A stretch of 64,000 nucleotides of DNA from Alphaproteobacteria bacterium. GTDB taxonomy: Bacteria > Pseudomonadota > Alphaproteobacteria > UBA828. A program made the position numbers and the translations under genes. Below the pieces are notes generated by a model. It was given only the letters and a program-made list of their open reading frames with translations, was not told where the DNA came from and made no database searches. The DNA lies in the NCBI GenBank assembly GCA_963667785.2, contig CAXXMU010000006.1, forward strand, positions 1,024,001 to 1,088,000, read 5' to 3'. Positions 4,517 through 24,911 of the stretch are shown here, in pieces (position 1 is the first letter of the stretch; every line of letters starts with the position of its first letter).

Positions 4517-4524
<8 letters not shown>
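3802..4524 (+). CDS. ABC ATP-binding protein (LivG-like)
   Basis: Walker A GPNGSGKT; IEH; C-terminal VERAYLG. Confidence 0.92.
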
Positions 4525-5248
<724 letters not shown>

Positions 5249-5289
5249 CGCAGGTGCCGATAGGAGGCGCGGGTGGTCCCGCGGCTCGC

Positions 5290-6429
5290 TCAGGCCGCGC
5301 CGACGGCGGCATCGAGGGCGCAGTCGAGGGTTGCAACCGCACTCTCGATCCCGTGCCGCTCGTGCACCCGCGCCGCCGCCGCCTCGCCCATGGCCCAACG
5401 CCTCCCGGCGTCGGCAGAGAGTTCGACCACCGCGCAGGCGAAGGCCACGTCGTCATGGCGCGGCGTGAGCAGCCCGGTCTCGCCGTCGGCGACGATCGCA
5501 CGGGCGCCGGGCCAGTCCTGCGCCACCGCCGGCAGGCCCGCGGCGCCCGCCTGCAGCAGGGCCATGGGCAGGGCCTCGTCGTAGGCGGGCCAGACGTAGG
5601 TGTCGCAGGCCGCATAGACCTCGGGCAGCGTCTCGTCCTCCCTCTCGCCGGCTAGCACCGCCCGGCCCGGCCCGAGGGGGCGGAGCGCCTCCTCCACCGG
5701 CGCGCGTGCCTCGCCGTCGCCGACCGCGACCAGCTGCCATGGCGGCGCGGCGACAAGCGCGAGCGCACGGCCCAGCAGGCGCCAGGAGGCGAGCGCGGCA
5801 CCGGCACGCATGGGGGCTTCGGCCAGCAGCCACGGGCGGGCGGGATCGAGCGGCAGGGTCGCCGCCAGTGCCCGGCGGGCCTCGTCGCGCCCGGCCGCGC
5901 GCCAGGGCGCGCTGTCGAGAAAGGGCGCGAGCCGGTGGAGCCGCGCCGGGTGTGCCACCAGCGGCCTGACGCTCTCCTCGTCTTTGGCCGTCAGCGACAG
6001 CACCGCGCGGGCGTGCGCGATGGCGCGCGCGGTGAGCGTCGCCCAGCCTCCCTGAGCGGCACCGGCGTCACCGCGCGGGTACGACGCGCCCACCAGCAGG
6101 TAGGGGATGGCGAGCGTATCGGCCACCGCAGGGCCTACCAGGTCGGGCGCGCCGGGATACAGGTGGCAGGTGAGCCAGGCCTCGGGCCGCACGGCGAACG
6201 GCAGGTCGCGGTAGGCGGCGACGAGGCGGCGGGCGTTCGCGGCGCCCTTCCGCTCCAGCGCGTTCTGCCGGCGGCGATCTCCCTCGGCGCCGTCGCTGCG
6301 GAATTCGGTGGGCGCGAGCAGGGTGTGGCCGGCAGCCTCCAGCGCCTGTGCGACAGGCCGCACCAGCGAGGGCCGGCCCTGCTGCGCCATGCTCGTTCGA
6401 TCCGACGGCGTGTAGAGCGCGATGCGCAT
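5290..6429 (-). CDS. GT-B/GT4-family glycosyltransferase, divergent
   Basis: Start MRIALYTP; C-terminal VGDGEAR...YAACDTYVWPAYDEALPMALLQAGAAGLP...GETGLL. Confidence 0.8.
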   Translation of the reverse strand: MRIALYTPSDRTSMAQQGRPSLVRPVAQALEAAGHTLLAPTEFRSDGAEGDRRRQNALERKGAANARRLVAAYRDLPFAVRPEAWLTCHLYPGAPDLVGPAVADTLAIPYLLVGASYPRGDAGAAQGGWATLTARAIAHARAVLSLTAKDEESVRPLVAHPARLHRLAPFLDSAPWRAAGRDEARRALAATLPLDPARPWLLAEAPMRAGAALASWRLLGRALALVAAPPWQLVAVGDGEARAPVEEALRPLGPGRAVLAGEREDETLPEVYAACDTYVWPAYDEALPMALLQAGAAGLPAVAQDWPGARAIVADGETGLLTPRHDDVAFACAVVELSADAGRRWAMGEAAAARVHERHGIESAVATLDCALDAAVGAA

Positions 6430-7264: not shown

Positions 7265-8025
7265 CCGGCGCGGGACGCGGCACGGTCGCGGGCCGCCTCC
7301 CCGAAGGCGCCGAAGATCGCCAGCGAGAACGGGTCGTCCGCGACCTTCCACTCCGGGTGCCACTGCACGCCGAGCGCGAACGCGGGCGCATCGTCGACGC
7401 GCACGGCCTCGATCTGGCCGTCCGGCGCGGTCGCCTCGACCACCAGGCCGGGCGCGAGACGGTCGATCCCCTGCGCGTGCAGCGAGTTGACCGCGACCTC
7501 GCGCCCAGGCCAGAGCGAGGCCAGCAGGCCGCCGGCGGCAAGCGTCACCTCATGGGCCGGCCCGTACTGCACGTCACGGGCCTGAGAGCCGTCCGAACGA
7601 TGGTCGAGCCGGCCGGGCAGGCGATGGACCTCCTGATGCAGGCTGCCGCCGAGGGCGACATTGAGCTCCTGCACGCCCCGGCAGATGCAGAAGATGGGCA
7701 CGCCCGCCTCGATCGCCGCCCGGATCAGCGGCAGCGTCGTCGCGTCGCGCTCGGGGTCGTGGAGCGTGCCGTCGGCGCTCGGCGGGCCGTCATAGAGCGC
7801 GGGCTCCACGTTCGACGGGCTGCCGGTGAAGAGCAGGCCGTCGAAGCGCTCGAGCACCGCGTTGCGGTCGAGCGCCGGGCCGAGCGCAGGCACCGCAAGC
7901 GGCAGGCCGCCGGCGGCCTCGGCGACCGCCCTCATGTACTTGTCGCCGACGACATGGAAGGGGTGAATGCCGATCTCCCGCGTACACGCGGGCAGGCCGA
8001 TCAGCGGAACCGGCGGCGCCGTCAT
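7261..8025 (-). CDS. puuD: Gamma-glutamyl-gamma-aminobutyrate hydrolase family (peptidase C26)
   Basis: ICRGVQELNV nucleophile elbow, VNSLHAQ, GVQWHPE. Confidence 0.85.
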   Translation of the reverse strand: MTAPPVPLIGLPACTREIGIHPFHVVGDKYMRAVAEAAGGLPLAVPALGPALDRNAVLERFDGLLFTGSPSNVEPALYDGPPSADGTLHDPERDATTLPLIRAAIEAGVPIFCICRGVQELNVALGGSLHQEVHRLPGRLDHRSDGSQARDVQYGPAHEVTLAAGGLLASLWPGREVAVNSLHAQGIDRLAPGLVVEATAPDGQIEAVRVDDAPAFALGVQWHPEWKVADDPFSLAIFGAFGEAARDRAASRAG

Positions 8026-8031
8026 GGCGGC

Positions 8032-9381
8032 TCAGCTATCACGAGGGCCGTCGGCGGGCAAGAAGCCGCCCCGCCGCACAATCCCCAGGTAGATGACGCC
8101 GAGGCCGGCGCCTCGCACCACGTAGAGCAGCGTCATCGCCAGCCACAGGCCGTGATTGCCCAGCGGCTCGCGCAGGAGCCAGGCGCAGGGCACGAAGACG
8201 GCGAAGGCCAGCATCATCGTGTTGCGCATGTCGGCGGTGCGGGTGGTGCCGGTGAAGACGCCGTCGAAGAAGATGCCCCACACCGCGACCAGCGGCAGCG
8301 CGATCAGCCAGGGCAAGTAGTCGTAGGCGACCGCGCGCACGGGCTCGATGTCGGTCAGCACGCGAATGACCGGCAGGCCGGCAAGGCCGTAAACCGCGAC
8401 CGTGAGGAGGGCGAGGGCGAGGCTCCAGAGCAGGCAGACCCGGATGGCGCGGGCGAGATCCTCGCGGCGCCGGGCGCCGAGGGCGCGGCCGGTGAGCGCC
8501 TCGACGGCGAACGCGAAGCCGTCGAACGCGAAGTTGAAGAAGACGACGAAGTTGAGCAGCACCGCGTTGGCGGCGAGCACCACGTCGCCCTGGCGCGCGC
8601 TCAGCGTGGTGAACAGTGCGAACGCCGTGATCACGAACAGCGTGCGCAGGAAGATATCGCGGTTGATGCCGAGGAAGCGCCGCATGGCGGTGACATCGAG
8701 GAGGAGGTGGGGGCGCCACTGGCCGCCATGGCGGCGCGCGAGGCGGGCGGTGACGACCAGGCCCAGCAGGAGCCCCCAATAGTCGGCTGCCACCGTGGCC
8801 CAGGCGGCGCCGGCGACGGCAAGGTCGAAGCCGAGCACCAGCACCAGGTCGAGCACGATGTTGATGCCGTTGACCGTCAGCAGCAGCGCCAGCGCGGCCC
8901 GGGTGTTCTGCATCCCGATGAACCAGCCCACGAGCGCGATGTTGGCGAGCGCCGCCGGCGCCCCCCAGATGCGGATGAAGAAGTAGCCCATGCCCTCGCC
9001 GGCGACCGCCTCGCTCGGCTCCACCAGATGGAAGGCGAGCCGTCCGATCGGCCCCTGCAGCGCGAGCAGCAGCGCCGCCAGCACGAGGGCGATGACGAGC
9101 GCGCGGGCAAGCGTCGCGCGGGCACCGTCGAAGTCGCGGGCGCCGTAGTACTGGGCGGTCAGCCCCGTGGTGCCCATGCGCAGGAAATTGCTGCCGAAAT
9201 AGATCGTGTTGAAGATCAGCGCGCCGACCGCGACCGCGCCCAGAAAATGCGGCTCGGGCAGGTGGCCGATGACCGCCGTGTCCACCGCGCCGAGCAGCGG
9301 GACGGAGAGGTTGGAGACGACCATCGGCCAGGCCAGTCGCCAGACCCGCCGATGCCAGACCCACTCACGCATCGGCGACAT
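8032..9381 (-). CDS. dinF: MATE efflux transporter, DinF subfamily
   Basis: SNLSVPLLGAVDTAVIGHL, FLRMGTTGLTAQ, DGFAFAVEAL. Confidence 0.9.
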   Translation of the reverse strand: MSPMREWVWHRRVWRLAWPMVVSNLSVPLLGAVDTAVIGHLPEPHFLGAVAVGALIFNTIYFGSNFLRMGTTGLTAQYYGARDFDGARATLARALVIALVLAALLLALQGPIGRLAFHLVEPSEAVAGEGMGYFFIRIWGAPAALANIALVGWFIGMQNTRAALALLLTVNGINIVLDLVLVLGFDLAVAGAAWATVAADYWGLLLGLVVTARLARRHGGQWRPHLLLDVTAMRRFLGINRDIFLRTLFVITAFALFTTLSARQGDVVLAANAVLLNFVVFFNFAFDGFAFAVEALTGRALGARRREDLARAIRVCLLWSLALALLTVAVYGLAGLPVIRVLTDIEPVRAVAYDYLPWLIALPLVAVWGIFFDGVFTGTTRTADMRNTMMLAFAVFVPCAWLLREPLGNHGLWLAMTLLYVVRGAGLGVIYLGIVRRGGFLPADGPRDS

Positions 9382-10171: not shown

Positions 10172-12592
<2,421 letters not shown>

Positions 12593-12762
12593 CTGCTGCC
12601 CCTGCGTACGAGTCGAGCCGAATCGAACATCACACCAGTTTACAGGAGGTTATATGGCTCTGTTAAGGGGAGAGTCGAAGCCGGGGATATGGACCATACC
12701 GGGTACGGACCGCCGCTCGCCCTCCTGCGCGGATCAATCCCGCGCGGCCGACCCGTTCCCGG

Positions 12763-13557
12763 CTAGTTCGAGCGCGAGCTGGCGCGGGGCCGGACCGGCA
12801 CGCCCTCCAGGAGGCCGTGGCGGTCCATGTCCAGCCAGGCATCCATGAAGACCTCGTTCCACTGCTCGGTCATGGGGTGGTGCATCATGTCACGGTAGAC
12901 CGTCCACATGGTCACGAGCTCGTCTGCTCCGTCGCGGAGGGCGGCGTACGCGGTCTCCACCGTGCGGACGAGGGCGGCCATGATGAAGGGACGCTGCTCC
13001 CAGCGGCCGAACACCTGGGCGCACTCCCGGATCAGCTTGGTCGGGTCGCCGCCCGCTTCCTTGACCGGCTCGCAGAAGGGCAGGATGTGATCGACACCCG
13101 CCTGGGCGACGGCCACGGCCTGCGGCAGGGAGAAGACGGTGGTGCAGCAGGTCTCCACGCCCTCTTCCCGGAGCGCGGCGAAGGCCTTCAGTGCGGTCGT
13201 CGAGCACGGGATCTTCAGGACGACCTGGTCGGAGAGATCCGTGAACGCCTTTCCGACCTCGAGGAGCTCCTCGAGCGAGTGCCCGTCGATCTCGACGACG
13301 ATGGGCTTGTCGGTGAGGTCCAGGTACTTCTTGATCACGTCGATGGCACCGCCATGGGCCTTCGCGTACTGATTGTGCACCACCGTGTTCGTGACGATCC
13401 CGGCGATGCCGAGGGGCATCCATTCCCTGAGGTCATCGGGATCGCCGGCGAGCCAGATGGCGGGGCCGCGGCCCTGGTGGAGGGCGGCGGGGACCGGGCC
13501 GGTGCCGGCCTCCTCGCCGATCGATAGAGCAAGGGGGACGGCGCGTGCAGTCCTCAT
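12763..13557 (-). CDS. Transaldolase/fructose-6-phosphate aldolase family protein, atypical
   Basis: GIVTN, VVEI, Schiff-base VLKIP, TTVFSLPQA, HPMT; start uncertain. Confidence 0.8.
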   Translation of the reverse strand: MRTARAVPLALSIGEEAGTGPVPAALHQGRGPAIWLAGDPDDLREWMPLGIAGIVTNTVVHNQYAKAHGGAIDVIKKYLDLTDKPIVVEIDGHSLEELLEVGKAFTDLSDQVVLKIPCSTTALKAFAALREEGVETCCTTVFSLPQAVAVAQAGVDHILPFCEPVKEAGGDPTKLIRECAQVFGRWEQRPFIMAALVRTVETAYAALRDGADELVTMWTVYRDMMHHPMTEQWNEVFMDAWLDMDRHGLLEGVPVRPRASSRSN

Positions 13558-13631
13558 GATCGGTTCCTCCCGGTCCGTTGCGACGCCATCACGGTGAACT
13601 GGCTCGGTTCAACCGGCCAACCCGCGTCGGA

Positions 13632-15119
13632 TTACGAAGCCCGCGCGTTGGGCACCGCCTTCGCGATCCTGTCAATACCCTCAGGTATCAGCGATCCTGC
13701 GATCACCGAGTAGCCCAGGCGAATGTGATTCCGGTTGTTTCTCTCGTCGGAGAAGGTGAAGCCGCCCGTCTCGAAGAATACGCCCTCGGCTTCCACCAAC
13801 TGCCGAAGAATGCCGGCATCCGCCTCGTCCGGCAGCCTGAGCCAGATACTGCCTCCGCCATATTCCGACTTCGTGGACGCGCCCGGGAAATGCTGCTCGA
13901 GGGCGTCATGCATGACCGCGCAGCGCTGCTTGTAGATGCCGGTGATCTTCGCGACGAACCGGTCGAAGTACCCGCGTTGAAGGAACAGCGCCACGCTTCT
14001 CTGATTGTTCACAGGGGGGTGCCGAAGAATATGGTGGCGGAGCGCTCTCGCTTCCCGGACGAACTCGCGATCGGCAACCAGGTAGCCGATGCGAAGGCCC
14101 GGCAACAGCGACTTCGACAAACTCCCCGTATAGATGACGTTTCCCCAGCCATCGAGGCTCTTGAGAGCGCGCGGGGGTGTCATGTTGAAGCTGATGTCGG
14201 CCTCGTAATCGTCCTCGATCACGAACTGACCGTTGCTCTTCGTGAGATCGAGCAGTTCCATTTTTCGGTCGAGGGGCATGGTGACGGTTGTCGGAAACTG
14301 ATGGCTGGGTGTCACGAAGAGGCACTTGCAACCGCCGACATCGCTGGAGAGAACCAGTCCCTTCCTGTCGACAGGCAGGCGCCTCACCGCAATACCCTCG
14401 ATCTCGGCCATGTTGATGACGTCGGGATAGCCTGGGTCCTCGACGCCGATCGTCTCGCCCGGCGACAGCAGGAGCTTGATGGCGATGTAGAGCGCCTGCT
14501 GGCCGCCGACCGTGACCAGGACCTCGTCGGGATGGGCGACGATGCCGCGCTTGGCGAGCACGCGCTGGATCAGCTGCTCGATCAGCATGTCGTCGTCGAT
14601 CGCGGAATAGTCGGTGGCCCAATTGGCGAGTTCGATGACGTTGACGGAATCGCGCACGCACTCGCGCCAGCTCGTAATGGGGAAGAGTGACGGGTCGGTC
14701 AGGCCGCAGACGAACGGGTAGCGATACCTGACCAGGACGTCCGAAGGCTTCACGACGCGCTGAAGGTTGAAGCTCCGCCCGGCGAAGAACGCCCGGTAGT
14801 CCAGCCGGCCCGGCGGTCGTGCATTCCCGGCCGGTGCGTCCGGCTTCAGCGCGTGGCCCGGGTCCGTCAGCACGTCGGGGTTCACGTAGAAGCCGGAGCG
14901 GTTCCGGGACTCCACGAAGCCGTCCTGCTTAAGCGCGTCATAGGCCAGCGTGACGGTCGTCACGCTGACTCCCAGCTCCGTCGACAGTTGCCGGATCGAC
15001 GGCAACGGCCGATGCAGGGGGTACTGACGATTGACGATGCCCATCGCGATCTGGCGCCGAATCTGCTTCTGCAGGCTCTCCGGCGCCTCGCGATCGATCA
15101 CGATCATGTTCTCGTACAT
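13632..15119 (-). CDS. MocR/GabR-family (GntR HTH plus PLP aminotransferase-like) regulator
   Basis: LPSIRQLSTELGVSVTTV HTH; VTPSHQFPT, IEDDYE, GSLSKSLLPGLRIGY. Confidence 0.93.
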   Translation of the reverse strand: MYENMIVIDREAPESLQKQIRRQIAMGIVNRQYPLHRPLPSIRQLSTELGVSVTTVTLAYDALKQDGFVESRNRSGFYVNPDVLTDPGHALKPDAPAGNARPPGRLDYRAFFAGRSFNLQRVVKPSDVLVRYRYPFVCGLTDPSLFPITSWRECVRDSVNVIELANWATDYSAIDDDMLIEQLIQRVLAKRGIVAHPDEVLVTVGGQQALYIAIKLLLSPGETIGVEDPGYPDVINMAEIEGIAVRRLPVDRKGLVLSSDVGGCKCLFVTPSHQFPTTVTMPLDRKMELLDLTKSNGQFVIEDDYEADISFNMTPPRALKSLDGWGNVIYTGSLSKSLLPGLRIGYLVADREFVREARALRHHILRHPPVNNQRSVALFLQRGYFDRFVAKITGIYKQRCAVMHDALEQHFPGASTKSEYGGGSIWLRLPDEADAGILRQLVEAEGVFFETGGFTFSDERNNRNHIRLGYSVIAGSLIPEGIDRIAKAVPNARAS

Positions 15120-15342
15120 CGTCGTCAGGCCCCTCGCCCCATGGAGCGACAGCCGCGGGAGTCAGGGGTAGCGCACGCCCAGCGGCGCCATCAAGCACTC
15201 TCAGCCTCTGCACCCAAAACCTTTCCTGTCTGTATGTAGGGACTCATCTGTCCGAGCGGTAGGTTGATCCCGCGATGGCTTAGAAAATAAGCGCGCACGG
15301 GAGGGATTTTACCGGTGGATCAAGTGGCGGTGTCGGGAAGCA

Positions 15343-17004
15343 ATGCAGCTGCGTAGCGACAAACAATATCTGGGAATCGAGCGCTCTCTGCAGCGTGCAT
15401 GGGCGAAAGGAGCCGGGCTGATCGACGAAGAGTTCGAGCAGCCCATGATCGCGGTCGTCAACACGTATCAGGAGTTCTCACCGGAGAACGTCCACCTCCG
15501 TCAGGTCGCCGACGCCGTCAAGGCGGGCATTCGCATGGCGGGCGGAACACCCTGCGAATTCAACACCTTCCACGTCACTGACAGCGAGACCTTTGCCTCA
15601 GTCGGCATGCGCTACGTGCTGCCGAGCAGAGACCTCGTGGCCGACATGATCGAGCTCATGGTCGAAGGCCACCGCTTCGATGCGATGGTGCTGATCGGCT
15701 CGGGCGACAAGGTTATGCCTGGAATGGTAATGGCCGCAACACGCCTGGATATACCCGCCATCGTTCTGTACGGCGGACCGACCAAGGCCGGACTCTACAA
15801 GAACCGTAAGGTATTTCTGGAGACGGTCTACGACGGCGTCGGCGAGCATCTTCTCGGGAGGATTACCGAGGAAGAACTCAAGGGTCTCGAGGATAACCAC
15901 TTCCCGTTTTCGGGCGCTTGTGACACCGCAACATCAGGCAATACTGCCGGCATCTACACGGAAGCTCTGGGACTTTCCCTGCCCCATTCCGGCACCTTTC
16001 CTGCGGGAAGCAACTACCAGCTGCGCGCGGCGAAATACACCGGGATGAGGATCATGGAGTTGCTGAAAGAAGACCTGCGCCCGTCGGAAATCCTGTCGCA
16101 GGAGGCTTTCGAGAACGCCATGCGCGTGGGGCTGGCGGTCGGCGGCTCCACCAACATGGTCCTTCACATGATCGCGATGGCGATCGAGGCCGGCGTCGAA
16201 ATCAGCTTCGACACCTGGGACCGGCTCAGCCGGGAGACTCCGACCCTGGTCAAGCTCGCGCCGTCGGGACCCTGGGGCGTAACGGAGCTCGGCGAAGCGG
16301 GCGGCACGCCCGCGGTCATGAAGGCGCTGGGCGATCTCATTCACCCGGACACGCGGACGGTGAGCGGCGAGACGACCGGGGAGCTGATCGCCCAGGCGGA
16401 AATCGAGAACCCCGCGTGCATCCGAAGCAGGAGCGATCCCGTCGAGCCGGAGGGCTCCATCTACATCCTCAAGGGCACTCTCGCCCCCGGCGGTGCGGTG
16501 GTGAAGGCCTCCGGTGTCGCTCGCGACATGTGGGAAGCCGTGCTGCCGGCACGCGTCTTCGAGGACGAAGAGGGCGCGATCGACGCACTCCGCGACAACG
16601 AAATCTCGCCCGGCACCTGCGTCGTGATCCGGAACGAGGGAACGCGGGGCGGCCCCGGCATGCGCGAGATGCTGGGTGCCACCTCGGCGTTGATGGGGGC
16701 GGGTCTCGGCAACAGCTGCGCGCTCGTCACGGACGGGCGCTTCTCGGGCGCGACGCACGGCCCCGCCATCGGATACGTCACGCCCGAGGCCGCGCGGGAG
16801 GGGCCCATCGCCCTCGTCGAGGACGGCGATCCGATCTGCATCGACCTGGCGGGCCGCACGCTCGACTTGCGGGTGGACCCGGAGGTGCTCGCGCAGCGCC
16901 GCCGCAATCACACGCCGAGGCCGGTTCCGGTCTCGCGCGGCTATCTCAAGCACTACGCCGAGCACGTGGCGCCGGCGTCCGAAGGGGCGGTGATGCCGCG
17001 CTAG
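15343..17004 (+). CDS. IlvD/Edd-family dehydratase homologue with altered Fe-S ligands
   Basis: [38 protein letters not shown]; PEN and GDK in place of PCN and CDK. Confidence 0.9.
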
Positions 17005-17007
17005 GCC

Positions 17008-18054
17008 ATGAACGCAGCAGGGAAGACCGTCGTCGTCACCAATGCCGCCTCCACCGGTATCAGGATCGAGCGCGCCGAGTTAAAGGCGCTCGCGCGCCGC
17101 AGCGACCGGCCCGGCCTGGCCTATCTCGGCGCCTGGACGTTTCTGCTGGCAGCGACCGGGGCGCTCGTCTGGCTCGCCCTGGGCAGCGCGTACGTCTGGG
17201 CGGCGATGTTCGCATACGGCGTCGTCATGTCGGTGCCGTCCTACGCGCTCAGCCACGAAACGGCGCACGGAACCGCCTTCCGCACACGCCGGCTCAACGA
17301 GGCCGTCTTCTGGTTCACGTCGCTGCTCTACGGCGAGGAGCCGCTGCACCGGCGCTACACCCACACGAACCATCACACCCACACCTGGTACGTCGGCCAC
17401 GACAGCCAGATGCCTTTCGACACGCCGCTCGACTTCAAGGGCTGGCTCTACGACATCAGCGGGCTGTCGATCCACAGGTTCCAGCTCCGGGTGCTCTGGC
17501 AGCTCGCGACCAGGCGATACACGCCGCTGATGCGGGAGGTGTCGCCGGCGTCAGAGCTGCCGAAGATGACCCGCAACGCGCGCCTCTTCTGCCTCATCTA
17601 CCTCGGCGTCGTCGCCCTGATCGCGTCCGGCTACGGCTGGCCGCTGCTCTGGTTCTACGTGCTGCCGCGACTCATCGGCGGTCCGATCATGCTGATGTTC
17701 AACATCATCCAGCACGCCGAGATGCAGGAGAACTCGCCCTCGATCGTGGACAGCACGCGGACGTTCCGGACGAACTGGGTGGGGCGCTTCCTCTATCTCA
17801 ACATGAACAACCACGTGGAGCACCACCTCTATCCGCAGGTGCCGTTCTACGCGCTCCCCCGGCTTCACGAGGCGGTCGCCCGGCAGACGCCGGAGCCGGA
17901 TCCGGGCTTCTGGCCCACCAATATCGATCTTCTCTGGGTCGTCGTCCGGCGCTCGCTCGGGCGCGGCACCAAGGCTGCATGGATCCGCCAGGCGCCGCAC
18001 ATGGTCAGCGCCGGCGGCACCCACACGAAGATCTCGAAGGCCACGATGCAGTGA
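17008..18054 (+). CDS. Membrane di-iron desaturase/hydroxylase family (MocD-like)
   Basis: His boxes HETAH, HTNHH, QH and HVEHH; several TM segments. Confidence 0.88.
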   Translation: MNAAGKTVVVTNAASTGIRIERAELKALARRSDRPGLAYLGAWTFLLAATGALVWLALGSAYVWAAMFAYGVVMSVPSYALSHETAHGTAFRTRRLNEAVFWFTSLLYGEEPLHRRYTHTNHHTHTWYVGHDSQMPFDTPLDFKGWLYDISGLSIHRFQLRVLWQLATRRYTPLMREVSPASELPKMTRNARLFCLIYLGVVALIASGYGWPLLWFYVLPRLIGGPIMLMFNIIQHAEMQENSPSIVDSTRTFRTNWVGRFLYLNMNNHVEHHLYPQVPFYALPRLHEAVARQTPEPDPGFWPTNIDLLWVVVRRSLGRGTKAAWIRQAPHMVSAGGTHTKISKATMQ

Positions 18055-18893
18055 CGCGCACGCGCATCTACACCTACGGCGGCAAGCCGGCCCGGCGCAA
18101 CTTCACCGTGGCCGACATGATCGCGCACAAGGGCACGGCCAGGCTCTGCCAGACCTGCCCGGCGACGGAGGAGGAAGCCGCAGCCTGCGAGGCGGTGGGC
18201 ATCGACGTGCTGAACACGTCGGATGCGGACCTTCCCGCGGTGCGGGCCGGTGCGCCGGAGACCTTCACCATCGCCGATCTGCCGATGACGGCGCACCGGA
18301 CGCCGGACGATATCCTGCGTGCCGCCGTGAAGGCGGCGGAAATCGGTGCCGACGCGGTCTACACGCCGCGCAGCCTGCACATGGTCGAGATGCTGGCCAG
18401 GGAGGGGCTCGCTGTTCAGGGCCATCTCGGCCTGGTGCCGAGGCTTTCCACACGGCGGGGCGGCTTGCGGATCGTCGGCAAGACGGCAGACGAGGCCGTC
18501 GAGCTGGCGGAGGATTTTCGCCGGCTCGAGGACGCTGGCGCCTATGCCGCCGAAGTGGAATGCGTCGCGGCCGAGGCGCTCGCGGCGATCAACCCGCTGA
18601 CGACGCTGGTCACGCATTCCATCGGCGCCGGCTCCGCAGGCGACGTCATCTTCATGTTCCTGGTGGACATCTGCGGGGAGTCCGATCGCCCCCCGGGGCA
18701 CGCCAAGGCGTTCGCTGACCTGAGTTCGATCCGCGCGCATCTCGCGGTCGAGCGGCGGCGCGCCCTGAGCGACTACCGGCACGCGGTCATGAACGGCTCC
18801 TATCCCGACGCCACGACCTCGGTCTCGATGCTGCCGGACGAGCACGAGAGGCTCCTCGAGGCGCTGGATGCGCGCCGGATCTTTCACTCCTAG
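18051..18893 (+). CDS. PanB-like (ketopantoate hydroxymethyltransferase fold) protein, non-canonical
   Basis: GTGA overlap; ADLP, GHLGLVP, AGAYAAEVECV, SIGAG; lacks GDS and KxE. Confidence 0.8.
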   Translation: MTRTRIYTYGGKPARRNFTVADMIAHKGTARLCQTCPATEEEAAACEAVGIDVLNTSDADLPAVRAGAPETFTIADLPMTAHRTPDDILRAAVKAAEIGADAVYTPRSLHMVEMLAREGLAVQGHLGLVPRLSTRRGGLRIVGKTADEAVELAEDFRRLEDAGAYAAEVECVAAEALAAINPLTTLVTHSIGAGSAGDVIFMFLVDICGESDRPPGHAKAFADLSSIRAHLAVERRRALSDYRHAVMNGSYPDATTSVSMLPDEHERLLEALDARRIFHS

Positions 18894-18903
18894 GGGAACG
18901 ACC

Positions 18904-19212
18904 ATGGCCGACTGGGTCCGCGCCTGCGCCTGCGACGACATCGAGGAAGAGGACCTCATCCGCTGGGACCACGGAGGCCGCACCTACGCGATCTACAGAG
19001 CCGAGGACGGCTTCTACTGCACCGACGGCATGTGCACGCACGAGGAAGAGCACCTCGAGGAGGGGCTTCTGACCGGCCATGTCATCGAGTGCCCCCTTCA
19101 CCAGGGCCGCTTCGACATCCGGACGGGAGAGGTGATCTCGCCGCCGCCCTTCGTCGACCTCAACACCTATCCGGTGAAGACGGAGGGCGGACAGGTCTAC
19201 GTGAAGGTTTAG
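18904..19212 (+). CDS. Rieske [2Fe-2S] ferredoxin (MocE-like)
   Basis: CTHE...CPLHQGRFD Rieske motif. Confidence 0.92.
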   Translation: MADWVRACACDDIEEEDLIRWDHGGRTYAIYRAEDGFYCTDGMCTHEEEHLEEGLLTGHVIECPLHQGRFDIRTGEVISPPPFVDLNTYPVKTEGGQVYVKV

Positions 19213-19280
19213 TGCCCCTGGACCGCAAAAACTCCCGGGGAATGCGCCGACAACCGATGCAACGAAGAGGAGATGGAACC

Positions 19281-20309
19281 ATGCAGAACCCAATTCGCAA
19301 ACTGCTGCTGCCCGGCCTGACCGCGGCAGGAATCGCGCTCGGCGCGATGGCTTACCAGGCCGACACGCAGAAAGCCGAGGCGGCGGAGAGCTTCATCTTC
19401 GCCCATGCGATGAACGTCGATCACGTGTTCCACGCCATCTCGGAACGCTACATCGGCGACCTGGCCGACCAGAGCGGCCTCGAGATCGAGTATCACCCGG
19501 GCGGCGATCTCGGGGACTGGACGTCGCTGTTCGAGCAGGCCATGCAGGGCGTGGTTCCGATGACGCTCACCTGGGCCTCGTCCGAATTCGATTCGCGGCT
19601 CGACCTCATCTATCTGGGCTACATCGTCTCCAACTGGGAAGACGCGGAACGTCTCTACGGCCCCGGCGCCGGCATGCTCGACGTTTACAACGACATGCTG
19701 GCCGATCTCGGTCTCCATGCCCTCGGCATCATCCCGACCGACTTCGGCTCGGTGGTGATCCGGAAGGGCGTGGGCGAGCTTCCGATGAACTTCCCCGCCG
19801 ATCCTAACGGCATGAAGATCCGTGTGCCGGGACTGGCGATCGCCGTGGACCGCTTCAACAACTTCGGCTTCGCCGCCGTGCCGATCCCGCTCTCGGAGGT
19901 GCACACGGCCCTTCAGCTCGGGACCGTGGATGCGCGGTCGTTCTCCACCGCAGTCGAGACCTACACGCTGCGCGACGTCCTTGAGGCCAACATTCTTACG
20001 AACGACTACTTCGAGGTCGCCTTCTGGCTCGTCAACAAGGAGTGGTGGGACGGCCTCCCCGAAGACTCCCGCAACGCCCTGCAGGCTGCAGCCGACAACA
20101 CTATCGGCTGGTCGTGGAAGGAAGCCAGGAGCAAGAGCGACGAGTTCCTGCAGAAGGCGCGCGATGCAGGCATCAACGTCGTCGAGCTGAGCGACGAGCA
20201 GATGAGCGCCGCCAAGCAGATCGTCTATGAGAAGGAGTGGCCGATGATGGAAGGCGTCGTCGGCAAGGAAATCATGGACAAGATCCGCCAGGTCGTAGGC
20301 GTCGAGTAA
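19281..20309 (+). CDS. TRAP transporter substrate-binding protein (DctP family)
   Basis: Signal peptide; HPGGDLG, GMKIRVP, EVHTALQLGTVDA; GAGGAG RBS. Confidence 0.9.
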   Translation: MQNPIRKLLLPGLTAAGIALGAMAYQADTQKAEAAESFIFAHAMNVDHVFHAISERYIGDLADQSGLEIEYHPGGDLGDWTSLFEQAMQGVVPMTLTWASSEFDSRLDLIYLGYIVSNWEDAERLYGPGAGMLDVYNDMLADLGLHALGIIPTDFGSVVIRKGVGELPMNFPADPNGMKIRVPGLAIAVDRFNNFGFAAVPIPLSEVHTALQLGTVDARSFSTAVETYTLRDVLEANILTNDYFEVAFWLVNKEWWDGLPEDSRNALQAAADNTIGWSWKEARSKSDEFLQKARDAGINVVELSDEQMSAAKQIVYEKEWPMMEGVVGKEIMDKIRQVVGVE

Positions 20310-20333
20310 GAACGTCACGTCCTCCAGCGACTG

Positions 20334-20359
20334 CGTCCGGGTGCTTCGGCACCCGGACG
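20334..20359 (+). terminator. 11-bp stem with UUCG tetraloop between dctP and dctQ (mRNA stabiliser or partial terminator)
   Basis: CGTCCGGGTGC-TTCG-GCACCCGGACG followed by GCTTCTT. Confidence 0.7.
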
Positions 20360-20384
20360 GCTTCTTGATGGAGGACCTGCGACC

Positions 20385-21029
20385 GTGACGGGCAATTCCG
20401 ATCAGCGACCCGGCCCCTCCGAGGTCCCGGAGTCATCGGTCGGCGATACCGAGGGTAGCGAGCGTGAACCGCCCGAGCGACTGACCGCCCTGCCCAAGGG
20501 CCCGCTGGCGGAGAGGTTGCGATGGGTGCTGGCGGCCGAGGCGGTCGTCCAGCGGATTCTCTACGTCTTCATCGTCGCGTTCGGCCTCTGCCTCGCCGGG
20601 CTGATGTTCACCCAGGTGGTGCTGCGATACGCCTTCGCCTCGCCGTTCGTGGGGATCGAGGAGCTATCGCTCCTCTTCGGCGCCTGGTTCTACTTCCTCG
20701 GAATCGCCTACGTCACGCGCGACGGCGAGCACATCCACGGCGGCATCCTGACCATGGTGGTTCGCGGGCCGAACGGCGTGCAGGCCGTTCGCCTGATCGT
20801 CACCGTGCTCGGCATCGCGGCCTGCGCGGTCTTCGGCTACTTCGCGATCAGGTACGCGCTCTTCGAGATCCAGACCGGGCGGCTCAGCTCGTACATGCGC
20901 TGGCCCAAGGGGTTGTGGTCGGCCTCCCTCATCCTCGGCTTCGTCGGCACCACGATCTACATGATCCTTCAGGCAGTCCATCAGTTCCTGGATCTGCAGG
21001 CCCGCCTCCGCGCGCGGTCGCAGAGGTAG
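20385..21029 (+). CDS. TRAP transporter small permease (DctQ)
   Basis: QVVLRY, EELS, GEHI; four TM segments. Confidence 0.88.
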   Translation: MTGNSDQRPGPSEVPESSVGDTEGSEREPPERLTALPKGPLAERLRWVLAAEAVVQRILYVFIVAFGLCLAGLMFTQVVLRYAFASPFVGIEELSLLFGAWFYFLGIAYVTRDGEHIHGGILTMVVRGPNGVQAVRLIVTVLGIAACAVFGYFAIRYALFEIQTGRLSSYMRWPKGLWSASLILGFVGTTIYMILQAVHQFLDLQARLRARSQR

Positions 21030-21031
21030 CC

Positions 21032-22336
21032 GTGCTCATCTTTCTCGGCTCCATCGCCCTCATCGTCATCCTGCTACTCTCGGAGATGCCGATTGCGTTC
21101 GCCTTCGGCATCGGCGCGCTGGTGTTCGGCCTTGCGTCGGGCTCGGACATCTCCTTCCTCATCCCCTTCGCCTATCAAACGACCTCGAGCTTCGCCCTGC
21201 TCGCGCTGCCGCTGTTCGTGATGGCCGGCACCATCATGGCCGAAGGCGGGATGTCCGAACGCCTGCTCGCCTTCGTGAATGCGCTGGTCGGCAGGCTCAA
21301 GGGCGGGCTCGGCGCCGTGACCATCGTCACCTGCGCGCTGTTCGGTGCGATCTCCGGCTCGTCGTCCGCGGCCATCGCCGCCATCGGGTCGATCATGATC
21401 CCGCGCATGATCCGGGAGGGATATCCGCCCGGTCATGCCACCGCCCTGGTCGCCTGCTCCTCGGTTCTCGCGCTGATGATCCCGCCCTCCATTCCCATGA
21501 TCGTCTTTGCGGTCACCGGCGGGATATCGGTGGGTGCAGCCTTCCTCTCGACCATCGTTCCCGGCGTCCTGCTGACGGGCGTCTATGTCGGCCTCAACTT
21601 CCTGTTCCTGCGGAAGGTGAAGACCATCACGGTCGAGGAACGGGTTTCCGTGCGGGTCGCGGTCCGCAGAGTCGGCACCACGGGCACCAAGGCCTTCTGG
21701 GCGCTGCTGCTGCCGGTCTTCATCCTGGGAAGCATCTATTCCGGGATCGCCACGCCGACCGAGGCGGCCGCGATCGCCTTCGTCTACACGGTCATCGTGG
21801 GCTTCGTCTTCTATCGCGGGCTGACGCTGCAGAACTTCCCCAAGGCCATCGGGCGCGCGGCGGTGACCACCGGGTCGATCATCGCGGTGCTGTTCTTCCT
21901 GTTCGTCATGAGCCGGGCGATGGTCCTCGAACAGGTGCCGAAGGACGTGGCGGACGCGCTGATCGCGCTGACGGAGAACCGCATCTTCGTGCTTCTGATG
22001 ATCAACCTGATCCTGCTGTTGATCGGCATGATCGTGGACGACGTGTCCGGCAGCGTGCTCGCGGCCATCGTGCTGCTGCCGGTGGCGACGGAGATCGGCG
22101 TCCATCCCATCCACTTCGCCGCGATCGTCGGCACCAATCTCGGGCTCGGGAACGTGTCGCCGCCGTGCGCGCCCATGCTCTACATGGCGGCGGGGATCAG
22201 CAAGCTCTCGCTGGACAAGTATGTGGTGCCGACAATGAAGCTGCTCTGCCTGGGCCATCTGCCCATGGTGCTGATCGTCACCTTCATCCCGGACCTCTCC
22301 CTGGCTCTGCCCAGGCTGGTCATGGGGATCGAGTGA
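21032..22336 (+). CDS. TRAP transporter large permease (DctM)
   Basis: GAISGSSSA, MIPPSIPMI, ATPTEAA, SPP. Confidence 0.93.
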   Translation: MLIFLGSIALIVILLLSEMPIAFAFGIGALVFGLASGSDISFLIPFAYQTTSSFALLALPLFVMAGTIMAEGGMSERLLAFVNALVGRLKGGLGAVTIVTCALFGAISGSSSAAIAAIGSIMIPRMIREGYPPGHATALVACSSVLALMIPPSIPMIVFAVTGGISVGAAFLSTIVPGVLLTGVYVGLNFLFLRKVKTITVEERVSVRVAVRRVGTTGTKAFWALLLPVFILGSIYSGIATPTEAAAIAFVYTVIVGFVFYRGLTLQNFPKAIGRAAVTTGSIIAVLFFLFVMSRAMVLEQVPKDVADALIALTENRIFVLLMINLILLLIGMIVDDVSGSVLAAIVLLPVATEIGVHPIHFAAIVGTNLGLGNVSPPCAPMLYMAAGISKLSLDKYVVPTMKLLCLGHLPMVLIVTFIPDLSLALPRLVMGIE

Positions 22337-22358: not shown

Positions 22359-22706
22359 TCAGTCGGCGGTCCCCGCCGGTGCGGCGCGGCGCAGCGCGGC
22401 GAGCAGTGCCGGATCCAGGGGGTCGAGCGGGCGCCCGGCGATCTCCTCGGCCGCGGCCCAGACCTGGGGCAGGTGCGCCACCAGGGTCGTGCGGCCGGCG
22501 TGGCTCCGCACCACATACTGATTGTTGGCCCAGTCCGACGCCTGGCAGCCATAGTGATCGAGGATCCGGTTGACCAGCGAGACGCGGCGCAGCCGGCCGA
22601 GATAGCGCTCGCGCCCGCTCTCGGGCTCGGCCGTGCGGCCGGCGTCGGTGCCGGCCTCTGTCCAGTGCACGCTGCCGTCGGCCATCATCGAGCAGAACGC
22701 GCACAC
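22359..22706 (-). CDS. Small hypothetical protein with N-terminal CxxC...HW
   Basis: GTG start after GGGGAG; C-terminal LDPLDP; follows the C45 gene. Confidence 0.65.
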   Translation of the reverse strand: MCAFCSMMADGSVHWTEAGTDAGRTAEPESGRERYLGRLRRVSLVNRILDHYGCQASDWANNQYVVRSHAGRTTLVAHLPQVWAAAEEIAGRPLDPLDPALLAALRRAAPAGTAD

Positions 22707-22736: not shown

Positions 22737-23828
22737 TCAGGCGGCGAGCGGATACTCCTCGAAGGAGGAGCGACAGGGCTGGGTGTCGGTGATGTGGAGA
22801 GTCCGCTGCTTGAGCGAGATCACGATCGAATGGTTGGTCTCCAGCCGCAGATTCTCGGGCTCGTCGTCGTCATAGTGCGCGCAGATCGAGTGCGGGTGGG
22901 CGAAGTGGTCGCCCATCGCAGATTCGATGGCGGCCACGTCGAGCTCCTGCGACTGCCTGAGCAGCCGTTCGAGGCGGACATGGCGGTACATGGTGTTGGG
23001 CCAGAGCTTGACCACCTCCGACTCCACGTCGAGCTCGCAGAAGTGGTTTGAGTGCGTGAGCACCCCGTCCTCGGGGTAGATGAACGCCTCCTTGTCGGGG
23101 CTCGTCTCGATGTCGATGGCGATGCCGTCCTCGTGCGCGATGAGGAAGTTCATGGCGACGGTCCGGTTGGTGCCGCAGACTCCGAGGATCGCCTCCTGCA
23201 TGTTGCGGGCGTTGAGGATATCGCGCACCCGCATGCGGAAGGGCTTCTCGTACTCGTACTTGCCGTCCTCCGTCGTCATCAGGGCGTTGATGCACACGCC
23301 GATGCCGTGCTCGTTGACGCCCTGCATGCCGCCGATGGTGCCGACCTCGCCGATGTGGATGAAGTCCGGCCCGTCCTCCCGCGTTACCCTGGAGACTGCG
23401 GTGTTGATGTCCCGCACCCAGTCCCAGTTCTGACCGATGACGGTGTCGCCGTTCTTCGAGCGCTCGGGCAGCACCGCGAAGGAGGTGCAGCCGTCGGGCG
23501 CGACAGGCACGTGTTGCGGCTGCGCGTTGCTCTTCATCATGCCCACGAGCAGCTCGTAGCGCACGTTGAGGAGCGTGATCTCCTCCAGACTTCGGCCCGA
23601 GCCCTCGACCACGCCGTCGATCTCCTCCCAGAATAACGGGTCCCTCGGGCGGAGCGCCTCGGCCCACTTCGCGGATTCGGCCATCAGCACGTCCTTCTCG
23701 AAGCCCAGAAGCTCGAAGCGCTTGAGGTAGCGATCGAGATTCTCGTCGATCTCCTTCGACAGGATCTCGCCGTGGGCACGGCCGCGATCCCTGGGATCGC
23801 CCGTCAGGTTCAGCACTGGCTTGGTCAT
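22737..23828 (-). CDS. Peptidase C45/Ntn-hydrolase (isopenicillin-N acyltransferase-like)
   Basis: RGRAHGE; autocleavage site G-CTSF; GQNWDW, GVNEHG, THSNHF. Confidence 0.88.
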   Translation of the reverse strand: MTKPVLNLTGDPRDRGRAHGEILSKEIDENLDRYLKRFELLGFEKDVLMAESAKWAEALRPRDPLFWEEIDGVVEGSGRSLEEITLLNVRYELLVGMMKSNAQPQHVPVAPDGCTSFAVLPERSKNGDTVIGQNWDWVRDINTAVSRVTREDGPDFIHIGEVGTIGGMQGVNEHGIGVCINALMTTEDGKYEYEKPFRMRVRDILNARNMQEAILGVCGTNRTVAMNFLIAHEDGIAIDIETSPDKEAFIYPEDGVLTHSNHFCELDVESEVVKLWPNTMYRHVRLERLLRQSQELDVAAIESAMGDHFAHPHSICAHYDDDEPENLRLETNHSIVISLKQRTLHITDTQPCRSSFEEYPLAA

Positions 23829-23996
23829 CGCTCGCCTCCCGTGCGGCCTCCGCCGGCCACCTCCCTCTAGCTCCGAGCCTCGTTGCGAGCGTAGCAAGGC
23901 GGCCGCGCCGAGAGAAGGCGGAAAGAGAGCCGCGCCGGCGCATCGCGCGCTATCATCGGCGGACACAGCCGGGCTGCGACAGAGGGAGGCAGAAAC

Positions 23997-24911
23997 ATGG
24001 CCACGCAGAAGGACATCCAGGTTTGCTTCAATCCACACTTCGATGCGGTATCGCTCTGGATCGGGTCGTTCGGCGGCGCGGACTCGCCCTGCGACATCTC
24101 GCGCGGCGTCTTCGCGGCGCGCCAGGGAGTGCCGCGCATCCTTGAGATGTTCGCCCGCTACGGCATCAAGACGACGTGGGACATCACCGGCCACTCCATC
24201 GAGAGCTTTCCGAAGGAGGCCGAGATGGTCGCGAAGCACGGCCACGAGATCGGCGTTCACGGCTACACCCACGAGAACCCGCTCGCCATGTCCCGCCAGC
24301 AGGAGGCCGACGTTCTCGACAAGTGCGTCGAGCTGGTGACCGAACTCTGCGGTGTGCGGCCGACCGGCTACGTCGCGCCGTGGTGGGAGCTGAGCCCCAA
24401 CACCATCGACCTGCTTCTCGAGCGTGGCTTCGTCTACGACAGCAGCCTGATGGAGGACGACTACACGCCCTACTACCTGCGCAAGGGCGACCGCTGGACC
24501 AAGATCGACTACAGCAAGGATGCAGTCGAGTGGATGAAGCCCTGGGTGGCGGGAGAGTCGGTCGATCTCATCGAGCTGCCGGCGAGCTGGTACCTCGACG
24601 ACGCGCCGCCCATGATGTTCGTGAAGACCTTCCCCAACAGCCACGGCTGGGTAAACCCGCGGGACATCGAGGAAATCTGGCGCGACCAGTTCGACTGGAT
24701 CTACCGTCACTACGACCACGCCATCTACTGCTGCGTGATCCATCCCGACTGCGCCGGCAAGCCGCAGGTCCTGATGATGGTGGAGCGGCTCATCGACCAT
24801 GTCCTATCGCATTCCGGCGTGTGCATGGTGACCAAGGCCGACATGGCGGAGGACTTCAAGCGCCGCCAACCCTTCGGCGCCACGGCCGAGGGCGCGCCCG
24901 CCGCGGACTAG
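23997..24911 (+). CDS. Polysaccharide deacetylase (NodB-like, HP0310/PuuE type), cytoplasmic
   Basis: DSPCDISRG, HEIGVHGYTHE, GYVAPWWE, YDSSLM, IHPD. Confidence 0.88.
   Translation: MATQKDIQVCFNPHFDAVSLWIGSFGGADSPCDISRGVFAARQGVPRILEMFARYGIKTTWDITGHSIESFPKEAEMVAKHGHEIGVHGYTHENPLAMSRQQEADVLDKCVELVTELCGVRPTGYVAPWWELSPNTIDLLLERGFVYDSSLMEDDYTPYYLRKGDRWTKIDYSKDAVEWMKPWVAGESVDLIELPASWYLDDAPPMMFVKTFPNSHGWVNPRDIEEIWRDQFDWIYRHYDHAIYCCVIHPDCAGKPQVLMMVERLIDHVLSHSGVCMVTKADMAEDFKRRQPFGATAEGAPAAD

Follow-up and report, generated by a model that had tools for sequence, protein, structure and literature searches.

A conserved gene block of marine bacteria that combines a MocD/MocE-type oxygenase with divergent relatives of PanB and IlvD

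Gene content and conservation of the block

The stretch of 64,000 nucleotides analyzed here, hereinafter the window, comes from the genome of an alphaproteobacterium (GTDB lineage UBA828; GenBank assembly GCA_963667785.2, contig CAXXMU010000006.1, positions 1,024,001 to 1,088,000 of the forward strand; G+C content of approximately 68%) and is numbered from its first base. It contains a block of nine genes that is bounded by ftsK, on the minus strand at 10172-12592 and with four Pfam domains of FtsK, and by a gene of the AAT family (22737-24800, minus strand). The nine genes encode divergent homologs of the dihydroxy-acid dehydratase (DHAD) IlvD, of the ketopantoate hydroxymethyltransferase PanB and, directly adjoining ftsK, of transaldolase (Tal), together with an oxygenase of the MocD/MocE type, a MocR-family regulator and a tripartite ATP-independent periplasmic (TRAP) transporter. 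A preliminary description of this DNA, made from the letters alone, had read these genes as a catabolic pathway. Its gene arrangement is borne out in full by the analysis of open reading frames (ORFs) and by Pfam and NCBIfam searches, which agree on the family of every gene of the block. The features are listed below (GC3, G+C content at third codon positions; Fe-S, iron-sulfur).

12724..22302, no strand: island, present or absent as one unit (single empty-site contig of run X1; GC3 contrast)
12763..13557, minus: Tal/FSA-like class I aldolase-fold protein, 264 amino acids (PF00923, 67.1 bits)
13632..15119, minus: MocR-family regulator, GntR helix-turn-helix and aminotransferase-fold domain (PF00392 and PF00155)
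15208..15239, plus: candidate MocR operator, direct repeat CTGyA-N17-CTGTn (22-bp period, motif conservation)
15343..17004, plus: IlvD/EDD-family protein without Fe-S ligands (both domains, ILVD_EDD_N, PF00920, 356.5 bits, and ILV_EDD_C, PF24877, 226.9 bits)
17008..18054, plus: membrane di-iron oxygenase, FA_desaturase family, MocD-like (PF00487, 123 bits)
18051..18893, plus: PanB-like protein, YTPR subfamily (PF02548, 102.3 bits, profile positions 69-258)
18868..19212, plus: MocE-family Rieske [2Fe-2S] ferredoxin (TIGR02377, 140.4 bits against a cut-off of 136.15)
19281..20309, plus: TRAP solute-binding protein DctP (PF03480)
20385..21029, plus: TRAP small permease DctQ (PF04290; alternative starts at 20517 and 20526, so that the true start may lie downstream)
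21032..22336, plus: TRAP large permease DctM (PF06808, 312 bits; TIGR00786, 337.5 bits against a cut-off of 268.45)

A MocE-family ferredoxin and an FA_desaturase-family oxygenase belong to one operon. The GTG start codon of the PanB-like gene overlaps the stop codon of the desaturase gene, and the last 26 bases of the PanB-like gene are at the same time the first bases of the Rieske gene. Given that three more IlvD/EDD paralogs and a canonical panB are located elsewhere in the same genome, the IlvD-like and PanB-like copies of the block are extra ones. When compared with three close relatives, all nine genes show ratios of nonsynonymous to synonymous substitution rates (dN/dS) between 0.05 and 0.38; the values for the IlvD-like (0.09-0.10), PanB-like (0.08-0.14) and Tal-like (0.11-0.19) genes imply that these three encode working proteins under purifying selection.

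The core set, consisting of the IlvD-like, desaturase, PanB-like, Rieske and DctPQM genes and usually mocR, recurs in 23 loci at 76-97% identity (78-94% for the PanB-like protein), and the neighborhood search found the gene order to be kept across phyla, so that the block is a conserved set and its arrangement no accident. The desaturase, Rieske, DctP and DctQ genes are found in all 23 loci, and DctM is found in 22, the remaining locus being cut by the end of a contig. The IlvD-like gene is full length in 18 loci, lies off the contig in two and is internally deleted, in different places, in three. These three large deletions are independent (L007, 7846-8870, residues ~262-492 missing; L017, 8214-8876, ~90-424; L020, 8257-8883, ~147-486), and the other cluster genes are full length. 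In a locus of Arenicellales (L080, 10135-14149), the PanB-like, dctP and dctQ genes are fragmentary and the IlvD-like, desaturase and Rieske genes are intact. According to the record titles, the carriers belong to Alphaproteobacteria (Rhodospirillales and Paracoccaceae), Gammaproteobacteria (Arenicellales and Ectothiorhodospiraceae) and Binatia, and one IlvD-like protein is labeled Bryobacterales.

Altered active sites of the IlvD-like and PanB-like proteins

The claim that the IlvD-, PanB- and Tal-like proteins lack canonical active-site residues holds in our alignments, through which the residue numbers of the reference enzymes were mapped. The IlvD-like protein aligns over its whole length with the cyanobacterial DHAD structure 6nte (45% identity, E = 3e-128) and misses the NCBIfam cut-offs for DHAD only narrowly (NF002068, 643.2 against 644; TIGR00110, 616.1 against 618.15). 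The motifs that carry the Fe-S cysteines are altered, with PCN replaced by SPEN and CDK by SGDK, and the loop that follows the third cysteine reads CDTATSGN in place of the usual CGGMFTAN. Glu stands in place of Cys1 and Gly in place of Cys2, both in the protein of the window and in all 19 orthologs from other genomes; at the position of Cys3, 12 of these orthologs have Cys and seven have Ser. All three cysteines are conserved in every [2Fe-2S] class of IlvD/EDD enzymes treated in one survey of the family (PMC9314677). The Mg ligands (Asp and Lys of the CDK motif and Glu of GMREM) and the catalytic Ser of GRFSG are retained.

Judging from this residue pattern, the retained Mg site and Ser base argue for abstraction of an alpha-proton followed by beta-elimination, and for the same reason the dehydratase-type step of the preliminary description appears plausible. 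The carboxylates that have replaced the cluster argue for a mechanism with a general acid or a second metal, or else for a leaving group able to depart without a Lewis acid. Three more full-length lineages without Cys2 and Cys3 in which the Mg and Ser residues are intact, namely P0242 (61% identity), P0246 (45%) and P0248 (47%), emerged from a search of 1.84 billion representatives. Many other representatives lack Cys1 alone (PGH motif); because this is the arrangement of the E. coli type, the absence of Cys1 by itself is nothing unusual. When 300 genomes of the class were sampled, none besides that of the window turned out to have the IlvD-like type, and P0242 was not found in any.

The PanB-like protein is far more divergent by score, remaining well under the respective cut-offs (TIGR00222, 85.8 against 207.55; NF001452, 92.4 against 272). 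Its predicted fold (AlphaFold model with a mean pLDDT of 74.8) has E. coli PanB, 1m3u, as the best Foldseek match along the whole length (E = 1e-14, TM scores 0.69/0.74), and a look-up in the ESM Atlas returned only clusters named PanB. Where PanB has the K-x-E motif, this protein has YTPR, so that Tyr stands for K112 and Pro for E114, and D84, H136 and E181 align with their counterparts in 1m3u. In an alignment of 81 members of the subfamily with the canonical PanB of the same genome, which has both K112 and E114, these two residues are absent from all 81 members (Tyr in 67, Phe in 11 and other residues in three at position 112) and H136 and E181 are present in all; D45 is retained in 75 and D84 in 25, exclusively in window-type sequences. 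The subfamily further shares a deletion of 21 residues after D45 and new invariant residues E168, S190, H217 and E234 (window numbering). The loss of K112 and E114 together with the retention of H136 and E181 fits a protein that would have lost the keto-acid site and kept the side of the active site involved in one-carbon (C1) transfer.

Two apparent fusions of the PanB-like protein were discarded. P0392 (663 amino acids, desaturase and PanB-like) shows out-of-frame alignment patches and is a frameshift artifact, and P0104 (PanB-like and Rieske) was not counted as a real fusion given the 26-base overlap of the two genes, because of which a frameshift would fuse both. A second, more distant PanB-like paralog, 39-42% identical to that of the window, is encoded in nine relatives, eight of the same genus (G009, G011, G012, G013, G015, G017, G019 and G022) and one of the same family (G029); four of these carriers (G009, G017, G019 and G029) lack the window-type copy.

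Oxygenase partners, regulation and mobility

The broader context of the PanB-like subfamily was explored in 80 loci obtained by the PanB-like alignment scan, with one genome per species. All ORFs in these neighborhoods were clustered, and the annotations of the cluster representatives were mapped back to the loci. In 65 of the 80 loci, no more than 350 bp separate the PanB-like gene from an oxygenase gene; in a further 12 the distance is up to 8 kb, and in the remaining three no oxygenase gene was recognized. These oxygenases span unrelated families: FA_desaturase in 41 loci, FA_hydroxylase (PF04116) in 15 plus 3, and GbcA-like Rieske oxygenases in six. Genes of the PhyH family are found near the PanB-like gene in other loci, and GbcA-like genes accompany PanB-like genes in nine distant loci. 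In the 55 distant loci, where the PanB-like protein is 51-64% identical to that of the window, there is no IlvD-like gene (0/55), and the following cluster types are encountered.

Type 1: LysR, class II aldolase family, desaturase, PanB-like, DddP-like M24 and Rieske ferredoxin genes, sometimes with a reductase and a BCCT transporter
Type 2: LysR, HIBADH-like dehydrogenase, PanB-like and FA_hydroxylase (PF04116) genes
Type 3: the genes of type 1, joined by a GbcA-like Rieske oxygenase, an FA_hydroxylase or both, and by a GbdR-like AraC regulator
Type 4: PhyH-family dioxygenase, short FA_hydroxylase and PanB-like genes, with GntR and TRAP genes

The window desaturase is 60-65% identical to the desaturases of distant marine clusters and approximately 32-34% identical to the rhizobial desaturases whose genes precede MocE and a reductase. 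On plasmids of Rhizobium leguminosarum and Sinorhizobium meliloti, the genes for the desaturase, MocE and the reductase are followed by a PanB-like gene with Tyr at position 112, and the R. leguminosarum operon adjoins genes for an inosose isomerase and a LacI regulator. A Bradyrhizobium plasmid carries ribokinase, PanB-like, sterol desaturase, Rieske, TIM barrel and reductase genes. Three such plasmid operons (L088, 6965-10469; L089, 6135-9807; L090, 7965-12497) are mocDEF-like and end or begin with a non-canonical PanB-like gene that is annotated as panB. The desaturase and PanB-like queries give 144 and 142 matches, respectively, in Rhizobium, 85 and 87 in Sinorhizobium, and 9 and 9 in Ensifer; adjacency of the two rhizobial genes was checked directly in four records. 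Both the pairing in 65 of the 80 loci and the position of the PanB-like genes after mocDEF-like genes in rhizobia back the central idea of the preliminary description, that a MocD/MocE-type oxygenase acts together with C1 removal by a PanB-fold protein. A complex prediction for the desaturase and the PanB-like protein returned a score of 0.00, which is no answer and weighs neither way.

Some of these loci show additional features. A gammaproteobacterial contig (L024) carries two PanB-like genes, at 1704-2546 and 7464-8330, one in a window-like cluster (61% identity) and the other beside a short FA_hydroxylase gene. In 11 roseobacter loci (L031, L036-L038, L042, L045, L047, L049, L051, L053 and L065), PanB-like clusters of varying content adjoin genes for AMP nucleosidase and adenine deaminase, and these shared neighbors could mark a common point of insertion or else hint at a role connected with methylated purines.

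With respect to uptake, DctP, DctQ and DctM are all present, and the Arg of the DctP motif KIRV, which had been put forward as a binding residue, indeed aligns with the carboxylate-binding Arg of TeaA. Among solved structures, DctP comes closest to 4ovt and to two ectoine binders, 3gyy and 2vpn, with scores of only ~70 bits. Ectoine itself was rejected as the substrate because the aromatic and Asn ligand residues of TeaA are not kept. By analogy with distant relatives, the BCCT, DddP-like, GbcA-like and GbdR-like genes in their clusters point at least as much to zwitterions of the betaine type as to the speculative candidates of the preliminary description, methylated cyclitols and compounds of the mycosporine/gadusol type.

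Among the NCBIfam models, PdxR fits the MocR protein best, although its 317.8 bits fall short of the cut-off (320), and the rhizopine MocR model gives 227.9 against 650. A mocR gene is present at 18 of the 20 loci with enough flank, so that the regulator proposed as a part of the set belongs to it in most loci, and it is not found at the other two. In 16 of 20 loci, a direct repeat precedes the start of the IlvD-like gene by 95-172 bp; no match to it occurs elsewhere in the 826 kb of those loci, a count that is descriptive only given that the pattern was derived from the same sequences. The repeat is missing in the three loci without mocR nearby and in L003; in the latter, genes for a tyrosine recombinase and an IS91-family transposase (2651-5588), inserted between the Tal-like gene and mocR, have split mocR, and a C-terminal mocR fragment is left beside the Tal-like gene.

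The Tal-like protein scores below every NCBIfam cut-off (TIGR00875, 103.5 bits against 245.95). Compared with the Thermoplasma acidophilum enzyme and canonical copies, it keeps the Schiff-base Lys (VLKIP), the Glu of VVEI and the Asn of VTN, and it has WLAGD for F(L/V)DTA, with the catalytic Asp changed to Ala, PFCEP for SPF(V/I)GR, with the phosphate-binding Ser and Arg changed to Leu and Pro, and Cys for the Asn of the NCT motif, which we take to be the active-site Asn108. The gene is present in all nine carriers of the cluster within the window's genus and in none of the 11 non-carriers; it lies within ~8 kb of the PanB-like gene in eight of the nine, that is, wherever the assembly permits the check, in three arrangements, one of which (L005) places it directly after dctM. 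No ortholog was detected in five of five carrier genomes of other lineages, which encode ordinary Tal/FSA proteins at 27-29% identity or nothing of the kind. The Tal-like gene is therefore a lineage-specific addition, and the aldol-cleavage step that had been assigned to it would be limited to this genus. In the most closely related locus (L001), a gene of the PanE/ApbA family (3630-4643), similar to ketopantoate reductase, directly adjoins the Tal-like gene, so that three pantoate-pathway look-alikes, IlvD-like, PanB-like and PanE-like, occur together in this one locus.

Several observations bear on mobility. Within the window's genus, nine of the 20 other species carry the cluster, and the flanks differ even between the closest loci; GC3 is 0.78-0.83 in several genes of the block, whereas most genes of the flanks reach values of about 0.9 or higher. 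A contig of run X1 (347 nucleotides, depth 3, with 12 and 19 mismatches on its two sides) joins position 12723 to 22303 with 20 other letters in between, skipping 9579 bases; as a single low-depth contig from a related strain, it is weak evidence of an empty site. Five same-genus genomes that lack the cluster do have the genes of the right flank, with no ftsK within ~10 kb of them; because the synteny differs, these genomes give no support for or against insertion. Sequencing runs that contain at least 40% of the sampled words include two labeled sponge metagenome, no RNA run was among those listed, and the four runs compared with the window consisted of contigs. Metagenomic proteins form more than 100 PanB-like clusters at no less than 76% identity and more than 100 IlvD-like clusters at no less than 84%.

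On the right flank of the block, an ORF of 115 amino acids (22359-22706, minus strand) has no Pfam match even at E = 0.05; five genomes of the same genus have it, 75-93% identical, next to their AAT-family gene. The 687-amino-acid product of the AAT-family gene itself has a single Pfam match (AAT, PF03417, residues 449-671), and its two halves match separate places in same-genus genomes, which may indicate a fusion or a rearrangement.

Proposed pathway, alternatives and known systems

Taken together, these observations suggest a mobile catabolic operon that would import a small methylated solute bearing a carboxylate, demethylate it oxidatively, capture the C1 unit with the PanB-like protein and complete the conversion by an IlvD-type elimination without an Fe-S cluster; on sequence and context, we assign a probability of roughly 45% to this reading as a whole, including the horizontal mobility of the 9.6-kb block and its occurrence, so far, mainly in sponge-associated and other marine bacteria. 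The DctPQM proteins belong to a TRAP family and would bring in the solute. The MocD-like di-iron oxygenase, reduced by the MocE-type ferredoxin, would hydroxylate a methyl group, as its family and the rhizopine precedent suggest, methyl-group removal being the proposed role of the mocDEF oxygenase system. Gene context and residue pattern point to the PanB-like protein as the recipient of the hydroxymethyl or formaldehyde-level C1 unit, which would most likely be passed to tetrahydrofolate (THF), a natural guess for a relative of a methylene-THF enzyme, and toxic formaldehyde would thereby not be set free. The IlvD-like protein would then abstract the alpha-proton of the demethylated 2-hydroxy acid and eliminate the beta-substituent to give a 2-oxo acid, and in the window's genus the Schiff-base aldolase without a phosphate site would probably split the non-phosphorylated product. 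Conservation of the motif makes MocR the likely regulator of the operon through the direct repeat with its 22-bp spacing. The handling of a hydroxylated methyl group by the PanB-like protein appears to be the simplest account because the subfamily travels with unrelated oxygenase families and because the contexts suggest methylated inositols or sugars in rhizobia and solutes of the betaine or sulfonium type in marine bacteria. The core of the earlier pathway, oxidative demethylation, C1 removal and a dehydratase-type step, is thus supported, whereas the aldolase and the regulator are qualified as set out above.

Several findings speak against this reading. The loci are related to each other, so the counts do not represent independent events. 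No ferredoxin reductase is encoded between 12724 and 22302; reductases are present in the rhizobial and in some distant marine clusters. Neither folD nor purU nor any other folate C1 gene was seen among the families that recur in at least three of the 80 neighborhoods, in a scan that covered families with a median length of 150 amino acids or more and 13 of 30 low-frequency families (17 ORFs). The condensation of formaldehyde with THF is spontaneous and may call for no dedicated enzyme. The deletion of the IlvD-like gene in three otherwise intact loci implies that this step is dispensable in some hosts. Finally, window-type PanB-like proteins keep both metal-binding residues, D45 and D84, which fits continued keto-acid chemistry and leaves a true reverse PanB reaction on the product of the IlvD-like protein as an alternative for this operon.

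This alternative amounts to C-demethylation of a branched acid: the IlvD-like protein would make a 2-oxo acid, the oxygenase would hydroxylate the C-methyl branch beside the keto group, and the PanB-like protein would run the PanB reaction backwards, a retro-aldol cleavage that frees formaldehyde or methylene-THF and removes a blocking methyl group or quaternary carbon. IlvD and PanB are known to act on the same compound in pantoate synthesis, the logic of hydroxylation followed by hydroxymethyl removal has a precedent in 2-aminoisobutyrate catabolism, and D45, D84, H136, E181 and the closeness of the fold to PanB, along with the PanE/ApbA-family gene in L001 (one locus only), are all compatible with it. 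We nevertheless consider it unlikely, given that K112 and E114 are lost throughout the subfamily and D84 in 56 of its 81 members, that the IlvD-like gene is missing from all 55 distant loci, that several marine clusters have only one PanB-like gene for two or three different oxygenases, and that the rhizobial and Bradyrhizobium contexts are inositol- or sugar-like, where O-demethylation needs no cleavage of a carbon-carbon bond.

A different chemistry for the IlvD-like protein, that of a lyase rather than a dehydratase, would expel ammonium, trialkylammonium, sulfonium, sulfite or a thiol from C3 of a 2-hydroxy acid, the cluster then degrading a zwitterionic osmolyte such as a betaine, sulfonium or sulfonate acid; with such a good leaving group, a Lewis-acid Fe-S cluster would be unnecessary. 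Acidic residues lie at or near the positions of the old ligands (Glu for Cys1, Asp after Cys3 and a new Glu in TDSETFAS) with the Mg site and Ser base in place, but they might just as well bind a second metal ion or provide the general acid for an ordinary dehydration. Distant clusters, whose hydroxylases share 60-65% identity with that of the window, have in place of the IlvD-like gene a DddP-like M24 protein (~300 bits on a model for dimethylsulfoniopropionate (DMSP) lyase with a cut-off of 600), and they further encode BCCT transporters, oxygenases similar to GbcA and regulators similar to GcvA and GbdR. Ectoine binders are among the nearest solved relatives of DctP, but this similarity is weak and the ligand residues are not kept, and no known natural 2-hydroxy-3-onium acid offers itself as an obvious candidate, so we regard this possibility, too, as improbable. 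The view that the three odd enzymes are decaying or non-catalytic paralogs and the block a chance juxtaposition of a transporter with leftover genes could draw on the scores of all three below the NCBIfam cut-offs of their families, on the IlvD-like deletions and on the degraded PanB-like and DctPQ genes of L080. It is largely refuted by the low dN/dS of the three genes, the identical substitutions at Cys1 and Cys2 in 19 of 19 IlvD-like orthologs, the uniform absence of K112 and E114, the gene order shared across phyla and the presence of canonical IlvD-family and PanB genes elsewhere in the genome, and it is now very improbable.

A literature search, outside of which most subscription journals lay, turned up no paper that describes the operon or one of the two enzyme subfamilies, nothing on IlvD/EDD proteins free of Fe-S clusters, no discussion of rhizobial mocDEF-like operons with a PanB-like gene or of PanB-like genes beside demethylases, and no characterized pathway that would match. 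The preliminary description had named poor conservation of the gene set or a match to a characterized pathway as counting against it; because the set is conserved and no such pathway was found, its proposal stands in these respects. On the strength of these comparisons, the IlvD-like and PanB-like subfamilies appear to be undescribed, and the operon seems to be of a known kind, that of catabolic demethylation operons. A bolder version, which we put forward tentatively and consider rather doubtful, is that the YTPR-type PanB-like proteins are a new enzyme class that passes to THF the hydroxymethyl or formaldehyde units produced by oxidative N-, O- or S-demethylases from three or more unrelated families of oxygenases, a folate-linked "formaldehyde-activating" partner used from rhizobial methyl-inositol to marine osmolyte catabolism, and that it stands here beside the first Fe-S-free member of IlvD/EDD, its cluster exchanged for carboxylates, which acts on a charged or activated beta-substituent.

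Two questions are raised by the block: whether an IlvD/EDD enzyme can work without an Fe-S cluster, and what role a PanB fold plays that lacks the keto-acid site and yet always travels with oxygenases. A cluster-free enzyme would be independent of oxygen and iron, which would matter in iron-poor seawater and in biocatalysis, where lability of the cluster limits these dehydratases. Because the current database names, 'dihydroxy-acid dehydratase' for the IlvD-like and '3-methyl-2-oxobutanoate hydroxymethyltransferase' for the PanB-like proteins, are those of housekeeping enzymes, valine and pantothenate synthesis may be miscounted in sponge symbionts, roseobacters and rhizobia. Given its abundance among metagenomic proteins and its presence in sponge-metagenome runs, the operon would mark a metabolite exchanged in those habitats.

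Among known enzymes, DHAD and the sugar-acid dehydratases share with the IlvD-like protein the Mg ligands and the catalytic Ser, whereas their Fe-S ligands are absent from it. PanB shares with the PanB-like protein the fold, the Pfam family, H136 and E181, as well as D45 and D84 in the case of the window, which differs by the substitutions of K112 and E114, the 21-residue deletion after D45, the new invariant residues and the low TIGR00222 score. The Tal-like protein is of the same family as transaldolases of the TalC/FSA type and has their Lys and Glu, without the catalytic Asp, the phosphate-binding Ser and Arg, and Asn108. Marine bacteria that demethylate methoxy sugars have to cope with formaldehyde (PMC9400963), and the GbcAB-type Rieske N-demethylases and the P450 6-O-methyl-galactose demethylase have in common with the present block the logic of an oxygenase, an electron carrier and formaldehyde handling. 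Their oxygenase families differ from that of the window, and the known demethylase systems handle formaldehyde by the RuMP pathway, by glutathione or by GcvT-type folate domains, not by a PanB-fold protein. The closest parallel is the rhizopine system of Sinorhizobium meliloti L5-30, in which mocDEF is part of rhizopine catabolism under the control of MocR (PMC10107442), and which likewise has an FA_desaturase-family oxygenase and a MocE-family Rieske protein under a MocR-type regulator. The window differs from it in that the oxygenase is only ~33% identical to the rhizobial ones, the island has neither a MocF reductase nor inositol-pathway genes (including mocA, mocB and mocC), uptake is by a TRAP instead of an ABC transporter, and the IlvD-like and PanB-like genes are added, although the rhizobial mocDEF-like operons themselves end in a PanB-like gene.

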